From Klebsiella phage phi1_146015: 64,000 bases of DNA. Both the position numbers and the translations under genes were made by a program. The DNA lies in sequence record PP889466.1; one strand, 5' to 3'. Within the stretch, counting starts at the first letter, position 1. Each line of letters begins with the position of its first letter. Positions 11,143-11,407 of the stretch are shown piece after piece. Below the pieces are notes generated by a model. It had not been told where the DNA came from. It ran no database searches and was given only the letters and a program-made list of their open reading frames with translations.

Positions 11143-11164
11143 CAAGTTTTGTTTTGAGAAGACC

Positions 11165-11193
11165 ATTATAGTAATAAAGATCTATAAGGTCAA
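11165..11193 (-). promoter_or_regulatory. Leftward sigma70-type promoter (TTGACC-17-TATAAT) on the other flank of the palindrome, antisense to the gene 24 end
   Basis: rc of 11188-11193 is TTGACC and rc of 11165-11170 is TATAAT, with a 17-nt spacer. Confidence 0.45.
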
Positions 11194-11361
11194 ACGAGCG
11201 AAGCGAGTTTTCACGAACGAAGTGAGTGATGGGTAAGTACGATGTACTGTTTATAATATTTATATTTTATATATAGAGAAAACAGTACATTTCCGTATAC
11301 TTTTTAACCAACATTCACTCACTACGTTCGTTCATGTACTCGCTTCGCTCGTAGATTTGAC
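11189..11361. repeat. Imperfect inverted repeat (about 60-80-bp arms) around a 33-bp pure A/T core
   Basis: Left arm gtcaaaCGAGCGAAGCGAGT...gtactg (11189-11249), right arm cagtac...ACTCGCTTCGCTCGtagatttgac (11283-11361), core tttataatatttatattttatatatagagaaaa. Confidence 0.8.
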
Positions 11362-11384
11362 TTCTTGATCTAACTGGTTATAAT
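11357..11384 (+). promoter_or_regulatory. Sigma70-type early/middle promoter for uvsY (TTGACT-16-TATAAT)
   Basis: Near-consensus hexamers 24 nt upstream of the uvsY ATG. Confidence 0.65.
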
Positions 11385-11407
11385 GTTACTTTGTTTTGAG
11401 GTGATAC

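Follow-up and report, generated by a model that had tools for sequence, protein, structure and literature searches.

The spacer between gp24 and uvsY of Klebsiella phage phi1_146015 raises the question of what a long quasi-palindrome centred on A/T-only DNA does between two core genes of a T4-type phage. An earlier note on this DNA had proposed a candidate origin or an extrudable structure flanked by divergent sigma70 promoters. The question matters because, to our knowledge, replication origins of T4-type phages are essentially unmapped apart from those of T4 itself, and because two of T4's five origins need MotA, which is absent from RB43-type phages. We analysed the locus within a window of 64,000 nucleotides of sequence record PP889466.1, to which all coordinates refer (Table 1).

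The spacer between gp24 and uvsY

The window is 99.8% identical to Enterobacter phage vB_ECC_YI837 and groups with RB43, RB16, Lw1, GAP161 and Margaery (Pseudotevenvirus). A spacer of 265 bp separates gp24 from uvsY. The quasi-palindrome described in the earlier note was borne out within it, at 11192-11353: its coordinates and sequence check out, and it is highly non-random. Nested inverted repeats lie at 11194-11208/11338-11352 (15/15), 11213-11229/11315-11331 (16/17) and 11242-11264/11268-11290 (18/23), and comparison of the spacer with its own reverse strand aligned 173 nt at 69% identity. When folded as single-stranded DNA the spacer reaches -53.7 kcal/mol, against -20.2 +/- 3.2 kcal/mol for 200 dinucleotide shuffles (z = -10.4), none of which folded as well. 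The A/T segment had been overestimated as 33 bp of pure A/T; the uninterrupted run is 26 bp, and a stretch of 34 bp is obtained only if two G are tolerated.

Table 1. Features of the spacer and its two neighbours, with coordinates in the 64,000-nucleotide window; minus-strand modules are given in minus-strand reading.
Feature	Coordinates	Strand	Sequence or arrangement	Basis or remark
gp24, capsid vertex protein, left neighbour	9844..11142	+		ORF calls and annotation of 99.8%-identical phages
Direct repeat, left copy	11148..11158	+	TTTGTTTTGAG (11 nt)	repeat scan
Leftward sigma70-type promoter	11165..11193	-	TTGACC-17-TATAAT	scan, 11/12; outside shared unit
Module L1	11192..11210	+	AAAC-GA-GC-GAA-GC-GA-GTTT	outer stem, tandem G.A, GCGAAGC mini-hairpin core
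Module L2	11211..11229	+	TCAC-GA-AC-GAA-GT-GA-GTGA	
Central hairpin / potential cruciform	11242..11290		stem ATGTACTGTTT (11242-11252) + AAACAGTACAT (11280-11290)	fold z = -5.2
Uninterrupted A/T run, candidate unwinding core	11250..11275		26 bp	
Asymmetric conserved tail	11291..11312	+	TTCCGTATACTTTTTAACCAAC	with loop, part of ~58 bp identical in one genome's three copies
Module R2	11311..11337	-	ACAT-GA-AC-GA-AC-GTA-GT-GA-GT-GA-ATGT	
Module R1	11337..11353	-	TAC-GA-GC-GAA-GC-GA-GTA	
Rightward sigma70-type promoter, for uvsY	11357..11384	+	TTGACT-16-TATAAT	scan, 11/12; outside shared unit
Direct repeat, right copy	11390..11400		TTTGTTTTGAG (11 nt)	repeat scan
uvsY, right neighbour	11408..11830	+		ORF calls and annotation of 99.8%-identical phages

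An intrinsic terminator and a known RNA family were both rejected. Scanning 10500-12700 for a G+C stem followed by a T-run returned zero terminator-like sites, hence no canonical one after gp24, and no Rfam family came near its threshold, the best score being 32 bits against a gathering score of 249 (generic long-hairpin miRNA models). In the phage records examined the element bears no annotation. About 28 phages, 98.0-99.4% identical over the surrounding 1.4 kb, have a spacer that is 100% identical; at 98.1% this amounts to about 27 differences, of which zero fall in the spacer. Since these phages are kin, this invariance is indicative and does not amount to a formal test.

Copies of the element in phage genomes

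To count copies of the element we used a profile built from six of them. It yielded exactly three per genome in YI837, RB43, RB16, Lw1 and CfP1: copy A between gp24 and uvsY, copy B between the divergent genes rnh and gene 55, and copy C between gene 3 and a 261-aa ORF. The 64-kb window holds no second copy, the two others lying outside it. In the metagenomic relative 3300031418, the proteins of which are only 71-80% identical, all three sites are occupied (contigs covering each); Yersinia phage JC221 carries a copy at the gp24-uvsY site, and Pantoea phage Phynn and Morganella phage Mm5 carry one between rnh and gene 55. The comparison with related intergenic regions that the earlier note had called for thus places the element at the same three sites in several phage lineages. 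It is absent from Slopekvirus (KP15, Matisse), where the gene order is the same and the spacers hold only A/T-rich, GATC-rich sequence, with no analogous shared element. As a side observation, the repeat element breaks assemblies.

Alignment of the copies delimits a conserved unit of about 160 bp, from about 11192 to 11353, that excludes both promoters. Two left modules are followed by the central hairpin, a conserved asymmetric tail and, in inverted orientation, one or two right modules. The window copy, with 2+2 modules, is the most palindromic.

Both promoters announced in the earlier note were recovered by the scan as near-consensus and outward-facing. Its statement that their -35 hexamers lie in the arm ends holds in part, in that they abut the outermost hairpin modules or overlap them by 2 nt; they stand outside the conserved unit. 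The module-to-promoter distance varies, being 2-6 bp at site A and about 19 and 35 bp at site B, and copy C has no sigma70 promoter on its left side, which shows that divergent transcription is no general requirement. The leftward promoter at site A has no ORF of note downstream, as had been claimed, and the RNA predicted from it would be antisense to the 3' end of gp24. An equivalent promoter is found at site A in RB43, RB16, Lw1, CfP1, JC221 and two metagenomic relatives. Since it is kept in three lineages, this promoter with no gene to serve is probably real, its RNA being a prediction, and it may possibly have a role in supercoiling-assisted opening. Two further promoter candidates were rejected: an internal TAGAGA-16-TATACT (9/12), the -10 of which is not conserved in Phynn, JC221 and the metagenomic copies, and a late-promoter match, TATAAATA (11264-11257, minus strand), which is present in copies A and C and absent from copy B, RB43 and RB16.

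We also considered whether the 11-nt direct repeat that flanks the window copy marks the insertion of a mobile element or MITE with an 11-bp target-site duplication. The repeat is 9 nt long in RB43 and CfP1, and no repeat of at least 9 nt is present in RB16, Lw1 and JC221. As it decays in relatives it is probably no target-site duplication, and an insertion of this kind was rejected for this reason and because the three sites are occupied in all genomes checked.

The positions of the copies recall those of T4 origins. Copy A adjoins uvsY, as T4 oriF does, and copy B adjoins rnh, the neighbour of T4 oriG at gene 34. Copies B and C lie at both cumulative GC-skew minima of the genome (about 82 kb and 152-155 kb) and at both major switches from leftward to rightward genes. 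Skew follows transcription direction in these phages, so that the minima are supportive and not independent evidence. A distance of 3-4 kb separates copy C from gene 5; in T4, oriE is located near repEA (PMC3016281). Furthermore, oriE, oriF and oriG of T4 sit at points of transcription divergence and skew shift (PMC3016281). The likeness to oriF (uvsY) and oriG (gene 34) thus comprises the neighbourhood (upstream of uvsY; beside rnh), an A/T-rich element and the divergence and skew points. In contrast to the three copies of RB43-like phages, which are homologous, the T4 origins share no motif (PMC3016281).

The mechanistic analogy with oriF, an R-loop origin, fails. T4 oriF and oriG are MotA-dependent middle promoters that transcribe into a downstream unwinding element (PMC3016281), and RB43 has no MotA orthologue and no middle-promoter consensus (PMC1524935). 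The promoters found here are canonical -35/-10 sigma70 promoters that stand outside the shared unit; at site A both fire outward, with the A/T core (11250-11275) upstream of each, and consequently no transcript enters the core. No inward promoter able to supply a T4-type primer RNA was found.

Hairpin modules and compensatory changes

The loop of the central hairpin is 27 nt long and holds the near-invariant segment TTATATATAGA. A perfect central stem of 6-12 bp is kept in all 21 phage copies examined (21/21). These stems fall into four classes (ATGTACTG..., AACTACAT, ATGTCC(A) and GTACCCT), all complementary and not interchangeable: for the four clear classes an arm pairs over 8-12 bp with its own partner, against 0-6 bp in cross combinations. 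A fifth class, again complementary, occurs in one island copy (see below). All copies within one genome share the same stem class, which points to concerted evolution.

What had been described as the arms of one palindrome proved to be arrays of self-folding hairpins, two on the + strand to the left and two on the - strand to the right. Each module has, from the outside inwards, a Watson-Crick stem of 2-6 bp, tandem G.A/A.G, a single R:Y pair and a C:G pair, and ends in a GNA triloop; two copies have Watson-Crick pairs in place of the tandem G.A. The seven-base cores are GCGAAGC, GCGTAGC, GCGCAGC, ACGAAGT and CCGAAGG, in which the N of the GNA loop is the only freely varying base (A in 106 cases, T in 19 and C in 1). 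The distribution of these purine-loop hairpins between strands is sharply biased, with 56 on the + strand of the left half, 66 on the - strand of the right half and 4 otherwise. By itself the 7-mer GCGNAGC shows no genome-wide excess (53 occurrences against 55 expected), whereas the extended box motif GARCGWAGYGA is confined, within about 180 kb, to the copies of the element.

To determine whether the modules are maintained as folded structures we counted covariation in the alignment of the two left ones. All of the 180 cells form standard pairs (180/180) and five of the nine pairs show compensatory changes, for example U:A/C:G, A:U/U:A and A:U/C:G; this count was reached by 0 of 500 shuffles, and slid controls paired in at most 53%. 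In L2 all six counted pairs are 100% standard across 21 sequences, and four of the six have changed on both sides. In L1 the pair outside the tandem G.A covaries between U:A (13) and C:G (7). Furthermore, outer stems differ in sequence between the copies of one genome, yet remain complementary, which fits a folded structure better than a duplex operator.

These results modify the view of the locus as one long palindrome. The whole spacer can indeed fold as one long hairpin, but covariation backs local hairpins in each arm. Long-range pairing of the arms was rejected as the selected structure, since the formal count for it is weaker (75% paired, against 100% for the local hairpins) and the variable loop base often differs between arms.

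The cores of the modules belong to a known, experimentally characterised class of mini-hairpin DNA (GCGNAGC / GCGNNAGC) that is extraordinarily stable, binds SSB poorly and is reported from primase-dependent origins (G4, St-1, alpha3) as well as from RSF1010 oriV, in ssiA (PMC13037366). Our cores have its two G:C-type pairs and its GNA loop with a sheared G.A and a free N, and their R:Y pair covaries. Nearest-neighbour DNA energies for the box hairpins are weak (0 to -1.2 kcal/mol, z about 0), and conventional models are reported to miss the stability of this motif (PMC13037366); the case for stability consequently rests on the motif literature together with covariation.

Island homologues and the proposed function of the module

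Homologues of the element were also recovered from bacteria. The chromosomes of E. coli CX12 and CX08 carry a full-length copy with 89% identity to copy C, and further copies were found in Cedecea davisae, Enterobacter quasiroggenkampii, a MAG labelled Neobacillus, a Citrobacter freundii replicon and the 10.8-kb circular pTR_1_35. The island is rare, occurring in 2 of 5426 E. coli genomes and on 3 bacterial contigs in a scan of species-representative genomes. Phages and islands have in common only the unit of about 160 bp, the phage promoters being absent from the islands and the flanks not phage-like. Every island copy is preceded by a gene with the annotation "inovirus-type Gp2 protein", the 3' end of which is about 200 bp away, and this linkage persists where only the last 66-84 codons of the gene survive. 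The gene product has a Pfam match to YagK_YfjJ_C and a weaker one to REP_ORF2-G2P, and its motifs FRFDL, HYHCWIA and YLAK are consistent with an HUH rolling-circle Rep. Beyond the element lies cargo that differs between islands: a CBASS cyclase with a 2TM effector, a 389-aa protein with an HNH protein, a 246-aa protein with Ppl nearby, a serine recombinase with ParB-like genes, or an element of the IS3 type; defence genes (the CBASS pair, Ppl) predominate. After the cargo comes a small resolvase gene, and the islands also have large serine recombinases.

We tentatively favour the reading that the three copies, of which 11192-11353 is one, act in cis and at the level of DNA as bidirectional replication-origin modules, and consider it a plausible one on the strength of comparative sequence evidence. 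The origin proposed in the earlier note, shorn of the oriF mechanism, is strengthened by the three-copy family with two members at skew minima and divergence points, by the compensatory changes in the hairpins, by cores that match the primase-origin motif and by the homologous copy beside a Rep-like gene in bacterial islands. The rationale of the model is that the central A/T-only region, closed by its 11-bp stem, would be an easily unwound or extruded site, the opening of which could be aided, where two outward promoters are present (sites A and B), by negative supercoiling arising behind them. Once single-stranded, the flanks would fold into GNA-triloop mini-hairpins (left pair on the + strand, right pair on the - strand), which would resist coating by single-strand-binding protein and serve as single-strand initiation (priming) signals. 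As the two hairpin sets are on the strands that template outward synthesis, priming at them would launch two diverging leading strands. We thus infer unwinding and priming at the module, and a primase or initiator that would act there. Searches for an initiator or Rep homologue in the phage by tblastn and HMM found none, and the 261-aa ORF beside copy C was rejected as an initiator, having no Pfam or PDB match and no HUH motif. The strand bias of the hairpins and the invariance of the spacer speak for this reading as well; the absence of the element from Slopekvirus, the weak calculated energies of the box hairpins and the lack of genome-wide enrichment of GCGNAGC count against it. On this view the phage would use the module at three places, and small integrative islands would have borrowed it from the phages or have it in common with them; in the islands it occupies the classical position beside rep.

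Several known systems resemble this arrangement. The same layout with two diverging strands is that of ssiA and ssiB in RSF1010 oriV, where RepC has separate 20-bp direct iterons and RepB' is a dedicated primase. As in RSF1010 oriV, hairpin signals on opposite strands stand beside an A/T-rich region, here as structure around the 26-bp A/T run, and two diverging leading strands are geometrically possible. The CCGAAGG mini-hairpin of RSF1010 ssiA (PMC13037366) is moreover the exact L2 core of Phynn and the metagenomic relatives. Unlike RSF1010 oriV, the phage element has no sequence homology to it beyond the mini-hairpin core; we found no separate iterons of this type in the element alignment, and identified no candidate initiator or dedicated primase in the phage. 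The complementary-strand origins of G4, St-1 and alpha3 likewise place a GCGNNAGC mini-hairpin closed by G.A at a priming site from which SSB is excluded (PMC13037366). In contrast to these packaged single-stranded genomes, the phage element is double-stranded and has 2+2 inverted sets with tandem G.A. A broader parallel concerns herpes simplex virus oriS and oriL, which combine an A/T-centred palindrome, inverted recognition elements and divergent promoters in several copies per genome. These traits are common to both; there is no homology, and the herpesvirus boxes are duplex UL9 sites whereas the flanks described here covary as hairpins. Our search of the literature on the motifs and on RB43 origins and palindromes, with partial coverage of T4 origin work, found no description of the element.

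On a different reading, the modules are recognised by a phage or host DNA-binding protein that governs expression of the right-hand gene (uvsY, gene 55 or the 261-aa ORF), and islands have copied the site so as to switch on their cargo when such a phage infects. Such a regulatory platform or infection sensor agrees with the same orientation of the right-hand gene or operon at all three phage sites and in all island copies, with the -35 hexamers of the flanking promoters following closely on the element at site A and with the preponderance of defence genes in the cargo. The orientation in islands is inherited by descent and is hence not independent evidence. The distance between modules and promoters is not conserved and no left promoter remains at copy C, the outer stems behave as folded structures rather than as a duplex operator, and three sites per genome are very few for a regulator; we consequently regard this reading as unlikely, if deserving of attention. 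More doubtful still is that the element is a site for an island-type HUH enzyme, either a non-autonomous hairpin element or a rolling-circle origin; it would have passed from islands into phages, become fixed there and be acted on only in enzyme-bearing hosts. HUH substrates and rolling-circle origins have repeats flanking a stem-loop, and the phage element has the covarying stem and the near-invariant TTATATATAGA loop segment that an HUH-Rep origin would have, although any nick site is hypothetical. The constant tie of the bacterial element to the 3' end of the HUH-like gene and the direct repeat around the window copy can also be cited in its favour. The rep-ori modules of phage satellites (SaPI, PICI) and the HUH Rep origins of rolling-circle replicons are similar in this respect, as the island element lies directly 3' of the Rep-like gene and has repeats around an A/T-rich stem-loop. 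Against this, an HUH Rep-like gene stands beside the element in the islands and not in the phage, in which neither tblastn nor an HMM of four sequences found a homologue of the island protein; nicking or binding by the latter is putative. The island is also rare, whereas the element is fixed at three sites in several phage lineages, the flanking repeat is not conserved, and the invariance of the spacer in about 28 phages argues for a function in the phage itself.

It strikes us as improbable that the element serves only as a hot spot of recombination or gene conversion, or as a border at which modules are exchanged, and takes no part in initiation. The identical core of about 58 bp and the common stem class in the three copies of one genome speak for concerted evolution, and some lineages have extra ORFs inserted directly to the right of the element, just as island cargo varies. 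Homology alone, however, would not select compensatory changes in five separate hairpins, or an invariant loop. In T4, origins and recombination hot spots have been reported to coincide, so that this reading does not exclude an origin. The PeSL cassettes of T4-type phages (PMC2839356, PMC4122927) resemble the element in having repeated non-coding motifs, promoters and neighbouring gene insertion. PeSLs are composites of an early promoter and stem-loop motifs concentrated mostly in hyperplastic regions (PMC4122927), whereas here the promoters are outside the repeated 160-bp unit and there are three copies, between core genes; a PeSL cassette was rejected on these grounds. Least probable of all, and in our view very remote, is that the element works as RNA, either by forming a long hairpin (a terminator or RNase III site) when transcription reads through from gp24 or by encoding a small RNA. 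The lack of a canonical terminator after gp24 and the foldability of the whole spacer into one long hairpin would suit it. In contrast, copies B and C lie between divergent genes, and the promoters at A and B point outward from the element. Moreover, the strand that carries the purine-loop hairpins switches from one half to the other, the analysis revealed no conserved internal promoter and no Rfam family approached its threshold.

The conserved module, in its three copies, offers a precise target of 160 bp for origin assays in a large and therapeutically used group of phages (hosts Enterobacter, Klebsiella, Cronobacter, Citrobacter and E. coli). If it is the origin that we favour, it would also be a natural, covariation-supported example of GNA mini-hairpins that work, with their tandem G.A pairs, within double-stranded DNA. 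The presence of the module beside a Rep-like gene and defence cargo points to an unexplored interaction between phages and islands, be it hijacking, sensing or targeting of the phage origin. One version, to which we give little credence, is that the element is the origin of MotA-less T4-like phages, captured by host islands, and that an infecting phage fires the island copy with its own initiation machinery, thereby amplifying or mobilising the defence locus. Were it true, island capture would constitute a satellite-like 'origin mimicry' arm of anti-phage immunity against T4-type phages. The hosts that bear the islands do belong to genera infected by Pseudotevenvirus.

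Additional ORFs and island cargo beside the element

The right flank of the element, a ~160-bp hairpin-array unit, carries directly adjoining additional ORFs in two cases, one encoding a 261-aa protein without Pfam or PDB matches and the other a small Cys-rich product. The enterobacterial integrative islands that bear the element carry known or likely anti-phage systems, which include a CBASS cyclase with an AGS-C sensor and a SLATT 2TM effector, Ppl, and a two-gene operon with HNH, and every one of these systems is bounded by a small resolvase gene. Taken together, the extra ORFs and the variable island cargo suggest that the right flank of the element is an insertion hot spot.

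Coordinates of the features (L-numbers denote sequence segments with their own coordinates)
Feature	Location	Remarks
Canonical intrinsic terminator	window 9768-9791	3' of gp23; GGCAACC-tacg-GGTTGCC, then TTTTTT
T4 late-promoter consensus, exact match	window 11257-11264, minus strand	TATAAATA; within A/T loop
261-aa protein ORF	L008 42452-43237	between genes 3 and 2; phrog_7322
Small Cys-rich ORF	L031/L032 ~1090-1200	between element and uvsY; metagenomic relatives
Island anti-phage systems	L130 1995-3946; L132 1053-3749; L125 2445-5229	
Slopekvirus equivalent spacers	L018 ~930-1190; L028 ~950-1180; L002 1741-2049	
Box-motif pairs elsewhere	L095 990-1132; L047 4741-4795; L113 ~980-1115	
Element copies, NZ_JBHSCL010000010.1	L121 7450-7617; L126 4574-4740; L129 6568-6732	
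Contig ends inside element	L024 1-105; L035 1-94; PP337149.1 177682-177845	

Hairpin modules and neighbouring signals

Box-motif pairs (GAGCGAAGCGA..GAACGAAGTGAG) were also found in otherwise unrelated IMG/VR contigs, where their centres differ, and one of them, on a 94.6-kb contig, forms a perfect ~60-bp inverted repeat. The hairpin module may be more widespread than the element itself. Hairpin modules are absent from the gp24|uvsY and rnh|55 spacers of the Slopekvirus phages KP15 and Matisse, which are ~300 bp long, nearly pure A/T and rich in GATC, and these spacers may represent a different solution at equivalent positions.

Within the window, gp24 lacks a terminator comparable to that of gp23. 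Among the copies compared, the late-promoter match in the A/T loop is common to the window copy and copy C (next to gene 3), and is absent from copy B (rnh|gene 55), RB43 and RB16.

Element copies and assembly breaks

All three copies of the element are present on NZ_JBHSCL010000010.1. This contig, which belongs to the CGMCC 1.15774 assembly of 'Flagellimonas marina', is as long as a Pseudotevenvirus genome (178,077 bp) and is most likely phage contamination in a bacterial assembly. The repeat is a point where assemblies break: IMG/VR contig 3300045988_015308 starts within copy A (gp24|uvsY) and ends within copy C, and the end of the HK6 GenBank record falls within the element.

Near its right end the window ceases to be collinear with PV593738.1, its closest relative (1615 of 2152 positions mismatched at fixed offset between window ~61850-64000 and 60001-62152 of the relative), which indicates an indel or replaced segment there.
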